Notes under the pieces: generated by a model
What the model saw: the letters and a program-made list of their open reading frames with translations, nothing else
The model's database searches: none
What the model was told of the DNA's origin: nothing
Translations under genes and position numbers: made by a program
DNA from: an uncultured Planctomycetota bacterium
GTDB taxonomy: Bacteria; Planctomycetota; Phycisphaerae; Tepidisphaerales; Tepidisphaeraceae
Length of the DNA stretch: 64,000 bases
Direction: 5' to 3'
Assembly: GCA_963841915.1 (NCBI GenBank)
Contig: CAWJEN010000003.1
Location: 64,001 to 128,000 of the forward strand
In this document: positions 22,749 to 29,931 of the stretch, one piece after another
Position numbering within the stretch: position 1 is the stretch's first letter
Layout of the letters: every line of letters starts with the position of its first letter

Positions 22749-22915
22749 GGTCTAAGTTCTCCATTGTGACACGGGAAGATGCAAAGCCTGAATCACGTAT
22801 TCCGGCTGGCGCGGCCGCTGCAGCCGCTCAGAGGCATACGCCACCCGCGGCCGATAAGCTCACGGTGCTAGACGTTTCCTGTTCAGGCGGCGGGGCGAGA
22901 CCCGACATGCACTCT

Positions 22916-23611
22916 ATGAAGCTTCGACTCTCGGCCACAGTTGCGTTGATTTTCGTGTTGCTCGCCGGTGGTTGCTCCAGCTCGCAGCCCGATCGCTCGC
23001 AGCCCAAGCCGATGCCCAAAGCAGCCATTACGGCCGAGGGCCACTACGCGGCTGGTCAATTTCACGAGTCGGCGATCGTCACCGATCAGAGTGGTCGGGC
23101 GACGGCTAAGCAGCTTCGCGAGGCCCGTCGCAGCGCGATCAAGCAGTACGAAGCCGCGCTGAAGCTCGACGAGACGCACGCCGGCAGCCTGTACCGCCTG
23201 GCTGTCCTGGCGACCGAGGACCAGGATCTTGACCGGGCGGCTGGGTTTTGGCGTCGGTATGTGAAGGCAACCGATGGCTCAGCCGTCGCGTGGCGCAACC
23301 TGGCCGTCGCCCACGACGTGCTCGGTGAGGCCGAGACGGCCGAGGAGGCGTACCGACACGCATTGGCCGCTGACGCCGACGACGACATCAGCCGCGTGAA
23401 CCTTGGGATGTTGCTCGCCCGGGCGGGGCGGCTGACCGAGGCACGCGAGCAACTGTCCAAGGTGCTGGCCCCGGCTGCCGTCCACTTTCACGTCGCTCAG
23501 GCGTTGCAGCGTCGCGGTCAACACGCCGCCGCGGCCACCGAACTTCGTGCGGCTGCCGCAATCGACAGCCGCTACGCAACAGCGTCGCTCAGCGTCATGC
23601 CGATCGACTAA
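22916..23611 (+). CDS. TPR-repeat lipoprotein
   Basis: Lipobox LAGGC; TPR patterns YEAALKLD, AWRNLAVA, RVNLGMLL. Confidence 0.8.
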   Translation: MKLRLSATVALIFVLLAGGCSSSQPDRSQPKPMPKAAITAEGHYAAGQFHESAIVTDQSGRATAKQLREARRSAIKQYEAALKLDETHAGSLYRLAVLATEDQDLDRAAGFWRRYVKATDGSAVAWRNLAVAHDVLGEAETAEEAYRHALAADADDDISRVNLGMLLARAGRLTEAREQLSKVLAPAAVHFHVAQALQRRGQHAAAATELRAAAAIDSRYATASLSVMPID

Positions 23612-23631
23612 TTCAAGTCGTGACACAATCA

Positions 23632-23664
23632 AAGAAGCCGAGACACGACGCGTCGCGGCTTCTT
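23632..23664. terminator. Probable bidirectional terminator between convergent genes
   Basis: AAGAAGCCG...CGGCTTCTT inverted repeat. Confidence 0.6.
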
Positions 23665-23681
23665 CTGCATCTCTAACGGTG

Positions 23682-24455
23682 TCACTCGCGATCGAAGAGT
23701 GACACGCCGATCGGGCCAAAGAAGCCGACGGCCGCCGCTTCGTTCTGTGACTTCGTCACGGTGTAGACGTTGCCGCGGGTGAAGCTCATGACCTGCGGCG
23801 AAACGTGACCATCGAGCCACGCGACATTGGCGCGGCCGTCGTGGCGAAAGTGCGTCGAAGGATCGACACCGGCCGCCGGTGGCTCGACGAAGCCGTACTC
23901 GATGAGACGACCCGGCCGCAGAAATGCGGTGTCGGCGAGCAGCACCGTCTCGCTTGACGAGCGAAACTGCGAGAGCCTGGCCCCCAGCATCGATGTCAGC
24001 TTCGACGGCACGTCTCGGCCGACGTAGGTGGCGTTGTAGCCGTATCCGCCGGTGCCGCTCTCGAAGGCTGCCGCTTGTCCCGACTCGTATTCCACCGCCT
24101 CGTGATCGAAGGACGGGCAGCGGTTGACCTCGCCCGTCTCCAGATAGTCGAAGATCGGGCCGCGTTCGCTGACGAAGGCGGCATCGTCGTCCTCCCGCTC
24201 GCCGTGCCAACGACGCAGGTTCGAATCATTCGGCAGCGATGCGTCCCAAAACCGGGCGGCTCCGGGTGGCATCCGACCTTTGTGGTCGCCGGCGTAGTGG
24301 AACATGACCGTCGCGAGCTGACGCAGATTCGAGCTGCACGTGACCGCCTCCGCCGAGCGTCGAGCGGCCCCGAGCGTCGGCAGCATCACGCTGACCAGCA
24401 GCGCGATGATGCCGATCACGACGAGCAATTCCACAAGCGTAAAACCGCGCCTCAT
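23682..24455 (-). CDS. DUF1559-type prepilin N-terminal cleavage/methylation protein with H-X9-DG motif
   Basis: RRG|FTLVELLVVIGIIALL, AR..A....C.SNLRQL, HDGRANVAWLDGH. Confidence 0.92.
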   Translation of the reverse strand: MRRGFTLVELLVVIGIIALLVSVMLPTLGAARRSAEAVTCSSNLRQLATVMFHYAGDHKGRMPPGAARFWDASLPNDSNLRRWHGEREDDDAAFVSERGPIFDYLETGEVNRCPSFDHEAVEYESGQAAAFESGTGGYGYNATYVGRDVPSKLTSMLGARLSQFRSSSETVLLADTAFLRPGRLIEYGFVEPPAAGVDPSTHFRHDGRANVAWLDGHVSPQVMSFTRGNVYTVTKSQNEAAAVGFFGPIGVSLFDRE

Positions 24456-25249
24456 CGCCGCCTCCGCGCGAGCAGGCCACCGAGCACGAGCAGGCCGAGC
24501 GTTGACGGCTCGGGGACGACGTTAATGACGCCAACACCTGCGCCGACGCCGAGCTGGAAGTCGAAGCCGCCGGTCCCTTCGGTGAGCCAGGCGTCGAGGA
24601 TCGGGTTTCCGAGCGAGTCGAGGAAGCTGCCGTTGCCTGGGATGTCGACGAGGCGGACGAAGTTGATGCTGGCGAGATCGACATCGCCGCTGGCGACGAG
24701 CGGGTCGGCGGCAAGGTCAGCGAGATCGAACGGTGTCCCGAAGCCCGCCGCGTGCTTGCCGGCAAGGCCCTTGATGTTGGTCGCGTCGAACCCGCCGAAG
24801 CTCTGGCCGAAATCGCCTGCGAAGGTGGTGTTCGTCGAGACGCTCGGGAAGCGGGCAAAGTTGCTGCCGTCGGTACTGACTTCGACGTAAGCGAGCTCTG
24901 CCAGGAGGAACGGGTCGCTGGGGAAGACAAAGCCGTTTTCGAAGACGGCAAAGTCATCGCCAACGCCGTTGGTGATCGCTGCTGGGAAAGCAACGGTCAA
25001 CTCGCCAGGCTGGATGCCGTTGGCGATGTCGGCGGCGTCGAGGTCACCGAGGCTGTTGAAGCCGCCGTCTTCGTTGATGGCCGTGCTGCCGCGTGGGGCG
25101 AAGCTTGTGAGGCTGTCGACGATGTCGTCGGCCCAGGCGACGAAGCGGTCGCTGTCGACAGGAACGCCATCGGTCGGTCCGGAGTAGGGGCCGGCCACCG
25201 CTGCTGCAGGAACGGCCATCACGGCCGCGAGAATCAATTTGTAAGTCAA
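24452..25249 (-). CDS. PEP-CTERM surface protein downstream of a cobalamin riboswitch
   Basis: Signal peptide; C-terminal VPEPSTLGLLVLGGLLARRRR; TTG start; ATGA overlap with the next gene. Confidence 0.88.
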   Translation of the reverse strand: MTYKLILAAVMAVPAAAVAGPYSGPTDGVPVDSDRFVAWADDIVDSLTSFAPRGSTAINEDGGFNSLGDLDAADIANGIQPGELTVAFPAAITNGVGDDFAVFENGFVFPSDPFLLAELAYVEVSTDGSNFARFPSVSTNTTFAGDFGQSFGGFDATNIKGLAGKHAAGFGTPFDLADLAADPLVASGDVDLASINFVRLVDIPGNGSFLDSLGNPILDAWLTEGTGGFDFQLGVGAGVGVINVVPEPSTLGLLVLGGLLARRRR

Positions 25250-25461
25250 GAAAAGTCGCTCTCTGTCCCGAACGGGGCGGGACGCATCTTCGAGTCAGAT
25301 GGGTCACCGGCGACACAACTCGGGCAGAAGACGGACGACCGGCCGCCAATGGCGGGGCGGAAGCACATCGTCCGCCGGTCGTCCTGTTGCGCGAGGACCC
25401 GACAGGTGCCAACCGTCACGCGTTACCACGTGCGGCATCCGCCCGAACACGTCGGGTGGCA

Positions 25462-25656
25462 ACAGGCAGGTCTTCCGGCTACGGGTTCAACAGCGTCGGC
25501 CTGCCTTCCCGCTGACGCATCAGCAGTGGCTTGGTTGGCCGACGCCTGGCCCGTTACGGCGGCGCGTCCGCGGAGGAATCGGCATCATCGTCAGAGACGG
25601 CTCAACCTCACCTCACTTCCCTCTTCGCCGACGACAATGCGTCGCCGGCACCTGTG
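25462..25656 (-). promoter_or_regulatory. Cobalamin (B12) riboswitch
   Basis: Minus strand reads AGGTGC...AAGAGGGAA...GCCGCCGTAA...GCCACTG...GGGAAGGC...AGCCGGAAGACCTGCC, i.e. core elements and B12 box in canonical order. Confidence 0.93.
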
Positions 25657-25664
25657 ACGAAGGC

Positions 25665-25692
25665 AACGTAGCCTCCCGAGCGGGTGCGTCAA
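25665..25692 (-). promoter_or_regulatory. Sigma70-type promoter of the riboswitch operon
   Basis: TTGACG-N16-TACGTT, predicted start ~25658 at the aptamer 5' end. Confidence 0.65.
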
Positions 25693-25853: not shown

Positions 25854-28800
25854 ATGAACCGCCACCACCTGATCGAATCGCTCGAAACCCGTCGCCTGCT
25901 TGCCGCCCTGTCCTGGGACGGCGGCGGTGACGGCACCACCTTTGAAGATCCGCTCAACTGGAGCACGAACGTTGTACCTGGTGCGGCGGACGACGTCACG
26001 GTGGATGTCGCGGCAAATCCGACAATCGTGATTTCCGAGAGCCGCGTGCTGCGTTCGCTCAACAACTCCGAAGTCTTCGAAGTGACCGCGGCGGCGGCTT
26101 CGCGAACGCTCACCATCACGCAAGGCGGTCACAACAGTGGCACCATGGTCCTGACCGGGACTGGTCTGGGTGTCTCGTCTCTAGCCCTTGGCAGTACCTT
26201 TACCAATAGCGGAACAATTCGCTTCGACACCGCCGCCGGCTCGGCAGAGCGGCGGATCACGCTCAATCAGACCAACCCGGTCGCCTTCGTCAACGACGGC
26301 ATCATCAACGTGACGGCGGGAACCGACGCGGTGCTGCTTGGCAACGGAGCGGCCATCGCGACCTTCACGCAGAACGGCAACATCAACGTCGACGCCACAG
26401 GTCAGCTGATCGTCCAGAGCGTCAGCTTCGACTATGTCGGCGGGACCAACTCTGACGGCTTGTTTGTCGCGAGCAGTGTGCTCGACTTGGTCGATGCCGA
26501 CGCAGCCTCGACTTTGTCGGCAGTCGCCAGCAACACGTTGGCCGGCTTCGATTCGCCAGACCTGACGCTCGCAATACGTGGCGATGCAGGCGGTTTCAGC
26601 TCAGCGTCGCTCACCAATAGCGGCGTTGCGATGACGATGAACGGTGACATTGACATCGAGACGGCAGGCACCGCCTCGGCGACACTGACGCTCACCGGCA
26701 ACGTGACGAACCAGGGCACCATTGGCCTGACCGGCACCGGATCAGGCACCGCCACCTTCAACATCGGCGGAACCTTCACCAACGTCGGCACCGTCCGCGT
26801 CGACCAAGGCAGCGGCACGGGCGGTCGAAACGTTCGACTCAACCAGACGAATCCGGTCGCTTTCGTCCATAGCGGAACCCTCGACGTCACTGCCGGGACA
26901 GAGACCGCAATCCAAGGCAGTGGCGCGACGATCTCGACCTTCACGCAGAACGGAACGATTTCCGTCGGCGCAGGCGGTGAGCTCATCGTGCAAAGCGTCA
27001 GCCTGAACTACGTCGGCGGCACGCACACCAGCGGATTCTTCGTCACCAGCAGCCTCCTCGACCTCGACGACAGCGACGCCGCCTTGACGCTTACGGGCGT
27101 CGGGAGCAACACGTTGGCCGGTCACGACGCAGCGAACCTGACGCTGTCCGTGGCCGGCAACGGCGTCGGTGGGTTCTTCACGGCGTCGCTGACCAATGGC
27201 GGCGTCGCGATGAGCATCAACGGCGACATCGACCTCGTCACCAACGGCACCGCGTCGGTAAACCTGACGCTGACCGGACTCGTGACCAACAACGCGCAGA
27301 TCACCCTGACCGGAGACGATACCGGCGGTGTGAACTTCAGTATCGGTGGAACGTTTACCAACGACGGCACCATCCGCATCGACCAGGGCAGTGGCACCGG
27401 CACGCGGCTGCTCCGGCTCAACCAGACAAACCCGGTCGCCTTCGTCAACAACGGAACCCTCGCGACGACGGCCGGCACGGCAATCGAAGTGACAGGCATC
27501 GGCCCGGCCATCACAACCTTCACACAGAATGGCCTGATCAGCGTCGGTGCCGGTGGGCAGCTCATCATTGGAAGCGTCCGCTTGAACTACGTCGGCGGAG
27601 CCCACACGAGCGGGCTGTTTGTGACGAGCAGTGTCCTGGACCTGAACGACTCGGACACGGCAGTCACACTCGTTGCCGTCGGCTCAAACACGCTCGCAGG
27701 GCACGACGCGGCCAACCTGACGCTGACATCAACAGGCAACGCGATCAGCGGTTTCTCGACCGCGACCCTGAGCAACAATGGCGTTGATATGACCTTCAAC
27801 GGCGACATCGTCATCGCTGCCGACGGCACCGGGACGTCTAACTTCACGTTGACCGGCCTCGTGACGAACAACGGGGTCATCACCCTCACAGGCAGCGGAA
27901 CCGGCGGGACGAACTTCAACGTCGGCAACACCTTCACCAACAACGGCTCACTCACAATTGACCAAAGCACCGGCAGCGGTGCCAAGATCGTCCGTCTGAA
28001 TCAGACCAATCCGGTCGCTTTAGTCAACAACGGCACGATCGACGTCGCAGCCGGGACGAGTGCCGACATCCTCGGTAATGGAGCAACTATCACGACGTTG
28101 ACGCAGAACGGCCAGATTAATGTCGCACCAGGCAGCGACCTGACGCTGTCGAGCACGCAGCTCGACTACATCGGCGGGAGCAACACGAGCGGCCTGCTGG
28201 TCACGGCGGGCAACCTGAACCTGCTCAACGCCGCATCGTCGTCGGAGGTGGTCGGCATCGGGACCAACCTATTGCTTGCCCACGCCGCGGCGAATCTAAC
28301 CTTGGCCGCAGAGGGTGGCGTGGCGGGCAACACGACAGCGACGATCCGCACGTCGAGTGACCTCGTCAGCAACGGGCCGATCATCCTTCGAGGAAACGGC
28401 ACCTCCGCGGCGAATCTGCTCGTCGGTGGGACGTTCACCAACAACAGCACGGTCACGCTCGAACGCGGCACCGGCTCGGGCGGGAGGACCATCTCGATGA
28501 ACCAGACGACGCCTGCAGCGTTTGTCAACGTCGGCACCGTGGCTGTGGCGGCGGACGTCAACGCGAGCATCACCGGAACGACCGGGCCATTCATCAATAC
28601 TTCGCTTGTGAGCGTCGCCGACGGGGCGAGGCTGGCGTTGTCGGGTCAAAGCAACCTCTACGACGCGGCCGGAACGTTCTTGTCCGGCGGGCGATACGTC
28701 ATTGCCGACGGTGGAGAGCTGGACCTGCCGAATGCCACGGTACTGACGGCCGAGATCGAGGCGTTCGGCTCTGCCGAGATCGATCTGCTTCGCCTCGAGT

Positions 28801-29783
28801 TCAACCGTGGTGCGATTCGTCTGCTCGACGGTGCGGACGTGACGATCAACCCGTTCGGCAACAACACGTTTCAGAACCAGGGCATCATCGACCTGTCACC
28901 GACCAGCGTGCTCGACGTCATCGGCGACATGACGTTCGGCGGCGTGAGCCAGCCGGTGATCCGCAGCGAGATTGCAAGCCTCACCGACTTCGGCCGCGTC
29001 AACGTCAGTGGCAGTTTCGACCTCAACTCGCCCGACTCGACGAGCCGGTTCGACCCGGACCTCGTCGGCGGATTCGACCCCGAGGTCGGCGACAGCTTTG
29101 CCGTCATAACGGCAACGGGTGGCGTGGCCAACGGATTCGACTCGTTCCAGGGCGGCGAAGACCCTAGTGGCGATGTGCTGGCGGTTTCGCGTCCGAACAG
29201 CAGCACCGTGGCCGTGGCCGTCGTTCCCGGCCCGCTGCCGCCGGCTCCGCAGATTCTGGACCAGGCATTCGAGTTCCAGACGCGGCTGGCCGTGACGTTC
29301 ACGTTCGACCAGGACGTGTCGGCCTTCCTGTCGCGTAGCGACTACACCATCACGAACGTCGACACGGGCGAGGTGTTGCCACAGTCGGCCGGCGTGTTGA
29401 GCTTCAACTCAACGAGCAATCAGGCCGTGCTTGACCTGACCGGCAGCGTGCCCAACGGCAACTACCAGCTCGTTGTACAGGCCAGCGACATTGCCAACGG
29501 TGCGGGTGTGCCGGCCAGCGGGTCGCCGATCACGCTGGACTTCTTCGTTCTCGCCGGCGACGCCAACCGCGACCGCCAGGTGAGCATCCTCGACTTTGCC
29601 ATCCTGCGTGGCAATTTCGGCACGGGCAGCGGGGCGACCTTCACGCAAGGCGACTTCAACTACGACGGAAGCGTCTCCATCCTCGACTTTGCAGTGCTCA
29701 GGGCCAACTTCGGGCAGAACCTGCCGGTCCCGATGGCCTCCTTGTTCGCAACCGAGAACGAGGAACGTCTGACGCTGCGGTAG
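25854..29783 (+). CDS. Large secreted repeat protein (LEPR-XLL motif, ~193-aa beta-rich repeats, Ig-like region, dockerin-like C-terminus)
   Basis: ESLETRRLLA; recurring (L/M)NQTxP.A.V; C-terminal GDANRDRQVSILDF..NFG / GDFNYDGSVSILDF..NFG. Confidence 0.85.
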   Translation: MNRHHLIESLETRRLLAALSWDGGGDGTTFEDPLNWSTNVVPGAADDVTVDVAANPTIVISESRVLRSLNNSEVFEVTAAAASRTLTITQGGHNSGTMVLTGTGLGVSSLALGSTFTNSGTIRFDTAAGSAERRITLNQTNPVAFVNDGIINVTAGTDAVLLGNGAAIATFTQNGNINVDATGQLIVQSVSFDYVGGTNSDGLFVASSVLDLVDADAASTLSAVASNTLAGFDSPDLTLAIRGDAGGFSSASLTNSGVAMTMNGDIDIETAGTASATLTLTGNVTNQGTIGLTGTGSGTATFNIGGTFTNVGTVRVDQGSGTGGRNVRLNQTNPVAFVHSGTLDVTAGTETAIQGSGATISTFTQNGTISVGAGGELIVQSVSLNYVGGTHTSGFFVTSSLLDLDDSDAALTLTGVGSNTLAGHDAANLTLSVAGNGVGGFFTASLTNGGVAMSINGDIDLVTNGTASVNLTLTGLVTNNAQITLTGDDTGGVNFSIGGTFTNDGTIRIDQGSGTGTRLLRLNQTNPVAFVNNGTLATTAGTAIEVTGIGPAITTFTQNGLISVGAGGQLIIGSVRLNYVGGAHTSGLFVTSSVLDLNDSDTAVTLVAVGSNTLAGHDAANLTLTSTGNAISGFSTATLSNNGVDMTFNGDIVIAADGTGTSNFTLTGLVTNNGVITLTGSGTGGTNFNVGNTFTNNGSLTIDQSTGSGAKIVRLNQTNPVALVNNGTIDVAAGTSADILGNGATITTLTQNGQINVAPGSDLTLSSTQLDYIGGSNTSGLLVTAGNLNLLNAASSSEVVGIGTNLLLAHAAANLTLAAEGGVAGNTTATIRTSSDLVSNGPIILRGNGTSAANLLVGGTFTNNSTVTLERGTGSGGRTISMNQTTPAAFVNVGTVAVAADVNASITGTTGPFINTSLVSVADGARLALSGQSNLYDAAGTFLSGGRYVIADGGELDLPNATVLTAEIEAFGSAEIDLLRLEFNRGAIRLLDGADVTINPFGNNTFQNQGIIDLSPTSVLDVIGDMTFGGVSQPVIRSEIASLTDFGRVNVSGSFDLNSPDSTSRFDPDLVGGFDPEVGDSFAVITATGGVANGFDSFQGGEDPSGDVLAVSRPNSSTVAVAVVPGPLPPAPQILDQAFEFQTRLAVTFTFDQDVSAFLSRSDYTITNVDTGEVLPQSAGVLSFNSTSNQAVLDLTGSVPNGNYQLVVQASDIANGAGVPASGSPITLDFFVLAGDANRDRQVSILDFAILRGNFGTGSGATFTQGDFNYDGSVSILDFAVLRANFGQNLPVPMASLFATENEERLTLR
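26262..28520 (+). repeat. Intragenic degenerate tandem repeats
   Basis: NQT motif codons at 26262, 26838, 27417, 27996 and 28497 (periods 576, 579, 579, 501 nt). Confidence 0.85.

Positions 29784-29857: not shown

Positions 29858-29931
<74 letters not shown>

Follow-up and report, generated by a model that had tools for sequence, protein, structure and literature searches.

The locus and its control elements

A predicted minus-strand transcription unit was analysed within a stretch of 64,000 nucleotides (the window) from an uncultured Planctomycetota bacterium, whose genome (3.63 Mb, 93.8% complete) is labelled G000; the loci compared with it carry L-numbers. The original prediction had described a promoter, a cobalamin riboswitch, a PEP-CTERM gene (gene 1), a DUF1559/H-X9-DG prepilin-like gene (gene 2) coupled to it by ATGA, and a hairpin, with no btu, energy-coupling factor (ECF) or cob gene among them. 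All of these parts were confirmed on the minus strand at the positions described, and neither gene calls nor the domain search revealed a btu, ECF or cob gene within the unit. Its nearest relatives are found in the Planctomycetota, those of the Phycisphaerae being nearest in the pilin tree. The features are as follows:

25665..25692, minus strand: sigma-70-like promoter candidate, TTGACG-N16-TACGTT (sequence; position of the -35 box in related leaders)
25448..25670, minus strand: cobalamin riboswitch aptamer (RF00174, 92.4 bits, E 1.3e-21)
25250..25447, minus strand: structured leader, the expression platform (fold of 25240-25480)
24452..25249, minus strand: gene 1, with signal peptide (~1-19), BtuH-like domain (~35-244) and PEP-CTERM tail (245-265) (model, fold and profiles)
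23682..24455, minus strand: gene 2, with prepilin-type N-terminus and DUF1559/H-X9-DG, of the B12-locus subfamily (Pfam, NCBIfam and subfamily profile)
23631..23665 (about), no strand assigned: hairpin, terminator-like (fold against shuffles, gene layout)

The aptamer, for which a check against the Rfam cobalamin models had been proposed, matches RF00174 over the full model (positions 1-189) with 92.4 bits against a gathering threshold of 31.5. It lies 198 nt before gene 1, in line with it, and is the sole RF00174 match found in G000. The promoter agrees with the sigma-70 consensus at 8/12 positions and does not appear in the promoter scan listing. It is supported by the position of its -35 box, 22 nt upstream of the Rfam start: 18/19 related leaders have a TTGAC/TTGCC box no more than 55 nt ahead of that start, and in 15/19 it is at 22–31 nt. 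The leader (25240-25480) folds with a z-score of -2.1, 4/200 shuffles folding equally well, and contains only a weak 5-bp terminator-like site. A predicted hairpin at ~25264-25283 covers a stretch rich in purines ahead of the TTG start codon of gene 1, and control of the operon is therefore likely to be translational. Genes 1 and 2 overlap by ATGA at 24452-24455. The distal hairpin (z -3.4; 0/200 shuffles fold as well) lies between convergent genes, has a short U-tract and is not in the terminator scan listing; it is likely a bidirectional terminator common to the unit and to a convergent tetratricopeptide repeat (TPR) gene ending at 23611.

Gene 1 encodes a predicted BtuH-type binder with a PEP-CTERM tail

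Gene 1 specifies a 265 amino acid protein from a TTG start; the ATG at 25219, which gives the 255 amino acid database call, was rejected because the signal peptide would then be too short. The signal peptide, recognised by eye from the sequence, precedes the rest of the protein, which ends in a PEP motif, a hydrophobic helix and a basic tail, and the motif scores over the cut-offs of both PF07589 (21.0 against 20.7) and TIGR02595 (21.9 against 16). Three exosortases (PF09721 matches) are encoded in G000. A surface location has been proposed for processed PEP-CTERM/exosortase substrates (PMC1569441).

The structural model of gene 1, built from 115 relatives, has a mean predicted local distance difference test (pLDDT) score of 92. 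Among 48,161 chains the two best matches are both BtuH domains, namely residues 318-593 of 7biz_B (the B12-binding domain of BtuH2; Z 12.4, root-mean-square deviation 3.2 Å, 161 aligned residues) and residues 392-660 of 8blw_B (the BtuH domain of BtuG1; Z 12.0, 3.4 Å, 171 aligned residues), the next Z being 8.1. Foldseek also placed 8blw_B at the top (E 1.1e-3). The single sequence and a close profile (A1) gave no match to solved structures, and a long homolog matched thrombospondin repeats only; profile A3, made from 84 divergent homologs, matches 8blw_B by sequence (E 4e-4). A bridge is provided by a Bacteroides-type homolog from a riboswitch-pilin locus, L099 (8blw_B, E 7e-19; 7biz_A, E 3e-15), and alignment of A3 with A6, the profile of Bacteroides-type BtuH, gave a probability of 98.4% and an E-value of 5e-15 over 102 columns. 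A plasmid search with gene 1 returned one weak, irrelevant match.

BtuH2 residue numbers were read off the alignments with an offset of +100, which was checked on eight named residues. Chained alignments equate BtuH2 N399, F401 and E406 with N105, F107 and E118 of gene 1; E584 corresponds to D230 by a motif in A6, and W577/L578 are probably W221/L222, an assignment that requires a two-residue gap. Among the 84 homologs N105 is kept in 84/84, E118 in 84/84 (E/D), D230 in 84/84 (D/E) and F107 in 65/84. F401 and W577/L578 are corrin contacts of BtuH2, as are Q333, H476, Y510 and W511. Three of the five BtuH2 metal-site residues (N399, E406, D522, S582, E584) thus map to conserved positions of gene 1, and N399, E406 and E584 belong to these five, whose site secures the phosphate group of B12 (PMC13616437). 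BtuH2 is a B12-binding protein required for efficient uptake of the vitamin (PMC8941943).

Gene 1 is therefore a distant BtuH-family B12-binding domain, and is predicted to bind B12 beyond the inner membrane. The corrinoid binding that had been proposed for it thereby gains a basis in a class known to bind B12 in Bacteroides (PMC8941943); the idea of a new class of binder is given up. Two other assignments were rejected. Gene 1 has no PF14717 match at E<=0.1 and so is not DUF4465/BtuJ, neighbours in related loci scoring 120–335 bits; no BtuJ structure stands among the 50 fold matches shown, a listing that does not exclude one. Carbohydrate-binding modules (the CBM32 and AlyQ structures) reach only Z <=8.1, and a weak likeness of BtuH to AlyQ is noted in the BtuH paper itself (PMC8941943).

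Gene 2 belongs to a distinct DUF1559 pilin subfamily

The 257 amino acid product of gene 2 scores over the cut-offs for the N-terminal methylation (N_methyl), DUF1559 and H-X9-DG families. The prepilin motif scores 26.3 against 16.3 (TIGR02532), and the other two matches are marginal (PF07596, 24.3 against 23.3, residues 30-112 only; TIGR04294, 20.7 against 19). Against a profile of cassette pilins built without the window, gene 2 scores 259 bits and none of its paralogs in G000 more than 95. In all 29 rows of the subfamily F5, L7 and E9 are invariant and the prepilin cleavage motif and E5 are kept; the invariant aromatic or charged residues of the head are R82, W83, Y138, Y140, F203, R204 and W213. 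The model of gene 2 (pLDDT 86.9) begins with an N-terminal helix of about 50 residues (7-57), and its top 16 fold matches (Z 3.3–5.9) are all type IV pilins or pseudopilins, among them pseudopilin EpsG and competence pilin ComP (Z 4.5); Foldseek returned no row at E<=0.001.

In a quick, unrooted tree of 115 pilin heads, which was not a careful search, gene 2 falls into a group of 37 rows from the Planctomycetota and Verrucomicrobiota with a support of 83 in the Shimodaira-Hasegawa-like approximate likelihood ratio test (SH-aLRT). Besides gene 2 it holds 34 genes from binder or riboswitch loci, two switch-less genes and none of 35 G000 paralogs. Its sequence places gene 2 in a distinct subfamily of the DUF1559 pilins. 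At least two separate groups (support 98–99) are made up of other switch-linked DUF1559 genes, which suggests repeated recruitment or deep divergence of these sequences. A single origin of all B12-linked DUF1559 genes is not supported, as they are spread over several groups of the tree.

The genome of origin has 39 prepilin-motif frames and 99 PEP-CTERM frames. A PEP-CTERM gene lies on the same strand within 400 bp of 11/39 prepilin genes, compared with a mean of 1.5 and a maximum of 7 in 1000 random placements. This is a common layout in G000, and the original prediction has to be corrected in that the pairing by itself is hardly informative about B12. In a genome in which no TonB-dependent receptor was found, such pairs may be substrate-specific capture modules.

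Conservation of the cassette

From the binder side, the best 80 of 566 confirmed gene 1 relatives were taken from a genome scan; in all, at least 3574 relatives were found among 7997 scored candidates. Rfam recognised an upstream cobalamin switch in 11/13 homolog loci scanned, the two misses having 13 and 729 upstream bases. A separate switch model, based on 12 of these sequences, produced 61 matches; 54 were kept, in 53 of the 80 loci, and 7 were dropped as weak, downstream or on the opposite strand. On the same strand within 3 kb, a prepilin gene is present in 42 loci, a TonB-dependent receptor in 12, both in none and neither in 26. Prepilin genes occur in 30/40 Planctomycetota loci (receptors in 0/40), in 11/14 of the Verrucomicrobiota and Kiritimatiellae (receptors in 2/14) and in 1/26 of other phyla (receptors in 10/26). 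In L038 the order is switch, binder, prepilin, BtuF-like gene, ATP-binding cassette (ABC) ATPase and FecCD permease. The predicted synteny is accordingly present across the Planctomycetota and Verrucomicrobiota.

Several loci have features of their own. A BtuH-like gene and a pilin share a single open frame in L070:6965-8593, and BtuH-like and DUF4465 domains do so in L009, L026, L076 and L096. In the closest relative (L002:7798-8603) the pilin gene is split over two frames, being either broken or affected by an assembly error. Cyanobacterial and Desulfospira BtuH-like members (L021, L029, L030, L039, L044, L025 and L027) lack a clear switch, pilin or receptor in their vicinity.

From the pilin side, 301 Planctomycetota genomes were sampled regardless of binder. 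Subfamily pilins were found in at least 25 of them (E<=1e-40) and in at least 30 with the C-terminal profile, figures which are lower bounds because only 8–10 candidates per genome were scored. Twenty of 24 non-self matches were taken for locus inspection, one of them lying at a contig edge, and a switch is found within 3 kb upstream in 14/20 (9/15 by Rfam, 5/5 by the separate model). The pilin comes first after the switch in 8 of these 14 switch-linked loci, and can thus do without a PEP-CTERM partner. L090 runs switch, DUF4465, BtuH-like, pilin, BtuF-like, ABC and FecCD genes, and L100 switch, BtuF/C/D-like genes and pilin. The receptor plug domain is absent from 24/30 subfamily-positive genomes as against 51/271 others.

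Other genes recur beside these pilins. L101-L108 (family f10) and L110 have a switch, a DUF1559 gene and a small lipoprotein-like gene, variously with PF01902 (diphthamide synthase-like), DUF6580 or BtuF-like genes; DUF6580, which follows the pilin in seven loci, is a candidate for a membrane protein with a B12-related role. In L091-L095, from a single genus, a switch-less pilin is followed by small lipoprotein-like, NHL-repeat and FG-GAP genes, which may point to a change of function.

From the switch side, 51 genomes with neither receptor nor subfamily pilin were taken, 49 of which have a switch, and about 6 kb downstream was inspected for 71 of the 78 matches over the cut-off, the 7 weaker ones being left out. 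A prepilin gene of some kind lies behind the switch in 16/49. Among the 226 receptor-positive genomes 50 were picked, one per genus, and 44 have a switch over the cut-off; behind it there is a receptor in 18, a prepilin in 6, both in none and neither in 20. Receptor and pilin were never found at one locus in any of the sets.

For the loci with neither partner a common hidden outer-membrane transporter was considered and rejected, since their first genes mostly appear to specify secreted propeller-type proteins. These propeller-looking first genes (L116, L118, L119, L121-L123, L125, L128, L131, L132 and others) make up one cluster of 15 members and part of another of 18, with Pfam matches weak or absent, and are possible BtuG-like binders. 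At L111:548-2077, L117:524-2062 and L129:2646-4175 tandem cobalamin switches precede an OprB-like porin and a YncE-like propeller; the porin stands behind a switch in these three receptor-free, prepilin-free genomes only and may represent a third outer-membrane route. At L218:32-6160, a single case, a partial cobalamin switch match precedes a cupin, a secretin and a large pyrroloquinoline quinone (PQQ)-propeller/PKD protein. A PEP-CTERM-type family of ~200–250 amino acids is often first in switch-pilin cassettes (L145, L151, L191, L199, L207, L212 and L214) and is a candidate further B12 binder.

B12 requirement and machinery of the source genome

G000 specifies a B12-dependent methionine synthase, MetH (TIGR02082, 916 bits, the first 320 model positions missing), and no MetE, CobS or CobN was found in the 93.8% of the genome available. 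No TonB-dependent receptor was found in the genome: there are no matches to PF07715 (plug) or PF00593 (barrel), the control search matching in 3/14 genomes. The bacterium is likely a B12 auxotroph without a known outer-membrane importer, about 6% of its sequence being missing. Three secretins, three PilT proteins over the cut-off, several GspE/PilB-type ATPases and a GspF/PilC homolog are present in addition to the exosortases. A FecCD permease with an ABC ATPase, and a BtuF-like gene, are both unlinked to the unit and without a switch, and their role in B12 transport is putative. No DUF4465 core match was found in G000. A second corrinoid-binding protein, with B12-binding_2 and B12-binding domains, is specified at G000:C6:1453457-1454470 (L083:3458-4471).

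Comparison with known systems

The closest parallels are the Btu loci of Bacteroides thetaiotaomicron (BtuB-BtuG, BtuH, BtuJ and BtuFCD; PMC8941943, PMC13616437), which share the riboswitch control and the BtuH-fold binder; related loci of the present type add DUF4465/BtuJ (38/80 binder loci), beta-propeller-like proteins and BtuFCD-like genes. They differ in that here the unit has no BtuB or BtuG and no receptor was found in the genome, the binder ends in a PEP-CTERM tail where theirs has a lipoprotein anchor, and a pilin-like gene occupies the slot of the receptor. Gene 1 has the fold of the BtuH domains (BtuH1, BtuH2 and the C-terminus of BtuG1; 7BIZ, 8BLW) and stands alone like BtuH1, but is only 17–20% identical to them and belongs to a separate subfamily with 3352 representatives at E<=0.001. 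The published BtuH surveys, as far as their available text goes, cover gut Bacteroidetes and three Firmicutes only.

DUF4465 proteins from the planctomycete Mucisphaera and from Coraliomargarita bind B12 (10.1101/2025.08.21.671476). DUF4465 is a frequent neighbour in the related cassettes, although gene 1 itself is not of this family; the neighbours mentioned in the available text of that report are ABC, TonB and propeller genes, and not prepilins. A term search of the available text of PMC13616437 gave no occurrence of Planctomyc, PEP-CTERM or pilin.

Pilus-linked substrate capture has been proposed in the Verrucomicrobiota (PMC13174399), and the pilin-type protein with a specialised head that is predicted for gene 2 has parallels in ComP and the pilus-like MUL2 locus of Akkermansia (PMC13174399). 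Those systems act on DNA or glycans. The heads of DUF1559 proteins are larger, and there are dozens of paralogs. In Planctopirus limnophila DUF1559 is the largest paralog group, with 68 copies, and its function is given as unknown (PMC10632474). Gene 2 has the usual traits of the DUF1559/H-X9-DG family (N-terminal methylation motif, DUF1559 start, H-X9-DG and many paralogs, as the 39 frames attest) but differs in being part of a conserved subfamily tied to cobalamin riboswitches in two phyla. No report of this system, or of pilin-linked vitamin uptake, was found in the literature searched, which included few subscription papers.

The system is thus real and conserved, and combines a known class of binder having a new anchor with a pilin subfamily in the slot of the receptor.

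Proposed mechanism and alternatives

The operon very probably scavenges vitamin B12. Genes controlled by cobalamin riboswitches are on when B12 is short, and by this established behaviour a shortage of B12 would turn on the operon. Gene 1 would then be exported, processed by exosortase and presented in the periplasm or further out; there, by its homology to BtuH, it would bind cobamide through the metal site at the nucleotide loop. These first two steps are put forward with high confidence. In the two that follow, gene 2 would be processed as a pilin and join a type IV pilus or type II secretion-like filament, whose machinery is encoded elsewhere, as its B12-specific head; retraction of the filament would pull B12 through a secretin into the periplasm, from where the unlinked BtuF/BtuCD-like set, if specific for B12, would carry it towards MetH. 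The odds on these later steps are about even, and so are those that the pilin does the outer-membrane job of BtuB by way of a pilus/secretin machine. A broader proposal, namely that B12 import without TonB in the Planctomycetes-Verrucomicrobia-Chlamydiae (PVC) bacteria employs a retractable pilus or pseudopilus with DUF1559 as ligand-specific head, each paralog being a substrate-specific adaptor, is tentative and may well prove wrong.

Gene 2 might instead act in the periplasm. Anchored through its pilin helix in the inner membrane, it could bind B12 or pass it on in the manner of a solute-binding protein, the vitamin having entered through a porin or some other channel without any filament movement. 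The Pfam name of DUF1559 is SBP_bac_10, and a paper on R. baltica annotates it, as annotation only, as a solute-binding family (PMC2754498); the pilin adjoins BtuF-like genes in several loci, the invariant head residues listed above would suit a ligand pocket, and the OprB-like porin behind the switch in three genomes offers a channel. This relay is nevertheless rather unlikely: the model of gene 2 matches pilins over helix and head and not a solute-binding fold, the cleavage motif and E5, kept in 29/29 rows, suit processing and assembly, and with BtuF-like genes beside the pilin a second periplasmic binder would be redundant. It is also unlikely that gene 2 is a cargo-specific pseudopilin which brings PEP-CTERM B12 binders to the surface while B12 enters otherwise, even though the general association of the two gene types in G000 (11/39 against a random mean of 1.5), the ATGA coupling, which suits a 1:1 partner, and the presence of EpsG among the top fold matches all fit such an adaptor. 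The pilin comes first behind the switch in eight loci (L098, L101, L103-L108) which, at the profile thresholds used, lack any BtuH- or BtuJ-like gene within 10 kb, and in L100 it is accompanied by BtuF/C/D-like genes only. Conversely, the betaproteobacterial loci L053, L060, L068 and L074 have BtuH-/BtuJ-type PEP-CTERM proteins with a receptor and no prepilin, and an export function offers no reason for the lack of loci with both receptor and pilin.

That the operon serves to store or sequester B12 on the cell surface, or to fasten the cell to B12-producing organisms when the vitamin is scarce, with no transport role for the pilin, is improbable. BtuJ has been described as an extracellular reservoir (PMC13616437), a type IV-like pilus has been proposed for attachment in the Akkermansiaceae (PMC13174399), and 26/80 binder loci have no transporter-like partner; but neither function accounts for the entry of B12 in a MetH-dependent genome in which no receptor was found, nor for the pilin inside the btuFCD-like operons of L038, L090 and L100. 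Hardly any credence can be given to the view that one of some 39 prepilin-type genes landed by chance behind a riboswitch operon and is unrelated to B12. The number of prepilin paralogs in G000 is high and one genus keeps the subfamily gene without a switch, but the tree group of gene 2 holds 34 further genes, drawn in two phyla from loci with a binder or a riboswitch, and 0/35 paralogs, and pilins sampled independently of the binder stand behind switches in 14/20 loci. By this reverse search a chance association has largely been refuted already.

Import of B12 by a pilin-driven filament, the preferred interpretation, has itself to be weighed against a number of observations. The main limit on the model is that many PVC genomes have neither pilin nor receptor at the switch: among the 49 receptor-free, subfamily-negative genomes with a switch, 33 have neither within 6 kb, some at contig edges, and PVC bacteria must therefore have other routes or the pilin must be optional. 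Prepilin and receptor are likewise missing from the 26 binder loci already mentioned, several of which end at contig edges. The mutual exclusion of prepilin and receptor tracks phylum closely, and 21/30 subfamily-positive genomes belong to one family; the counts are therefore not independent, and the Fisher tests (p 4e-5 for loci, 2e-11 for genomes) were set aside for that reason. A receptor occurs somewhere in 6/30 subfamily-positive genomes. In five genomes of one genus the subfamily gene (287–294 bits) has no riboswitch in 10 kb; one genome of this genus has two switches elsewhere, each before a different DUF1559 group, and in another no switch was found. In G000 there is one weak TonB_C match (28.5 bits), and the missing ~6% of the sequence could matter. 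No operon carries genes for filament machinery. As to the proteins, Q333 and S582 of BtuH2 are not kept in gene 1 (S582 being G228), H476, Y510, W511 and D522 are unmapped, the first three lying outside the aligned stretches, and the pilin fold scores of gene 2 are modest, the best Z of 5.9 falling within the range of common arrangements. Binding and transport by the two gene products are predictions from sequence and models.

Neighbouring genes

Three neighbours show no sign of membership in the unit: a divergent plus-strand gene (25854-29783) for a 1309 amino acid repeat-rich protein with a Planc_extracel start and a dockerin-like end, the convergent TPR lipoprotein-like gene (22838-23611, plus strand), and a minus-strand tRNA with a CAU anticodon (29858-29931).

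Significance

The import of large nutrients by receptor-free planctomycetes is at issue here, 75/301 sampled genomes being without a plug domain. Through this locus one subfamily of DUF1559 acquires a ligand that can be named, a B12 switch of its own and a simple selection (limiting B12 without methionine), and the function of DUF1559 thereby becomes directly testable. Even if the pilin route fails, BtuH binders extend from the gut Bacteroidetes to a large, PEP-CTERM-anchored environmental subfamily. If pilin-driven import is shown, the system would be categorically new, and the pilin route, if true, would be a new way of moving a vitamin across the outer membrane. Should each paralog indeed be an adaptor for its own substrate, DUF1559 would be the PVC counterpart of the TonB-dependent receptor, and its B12 member the first with a nameable ligand.

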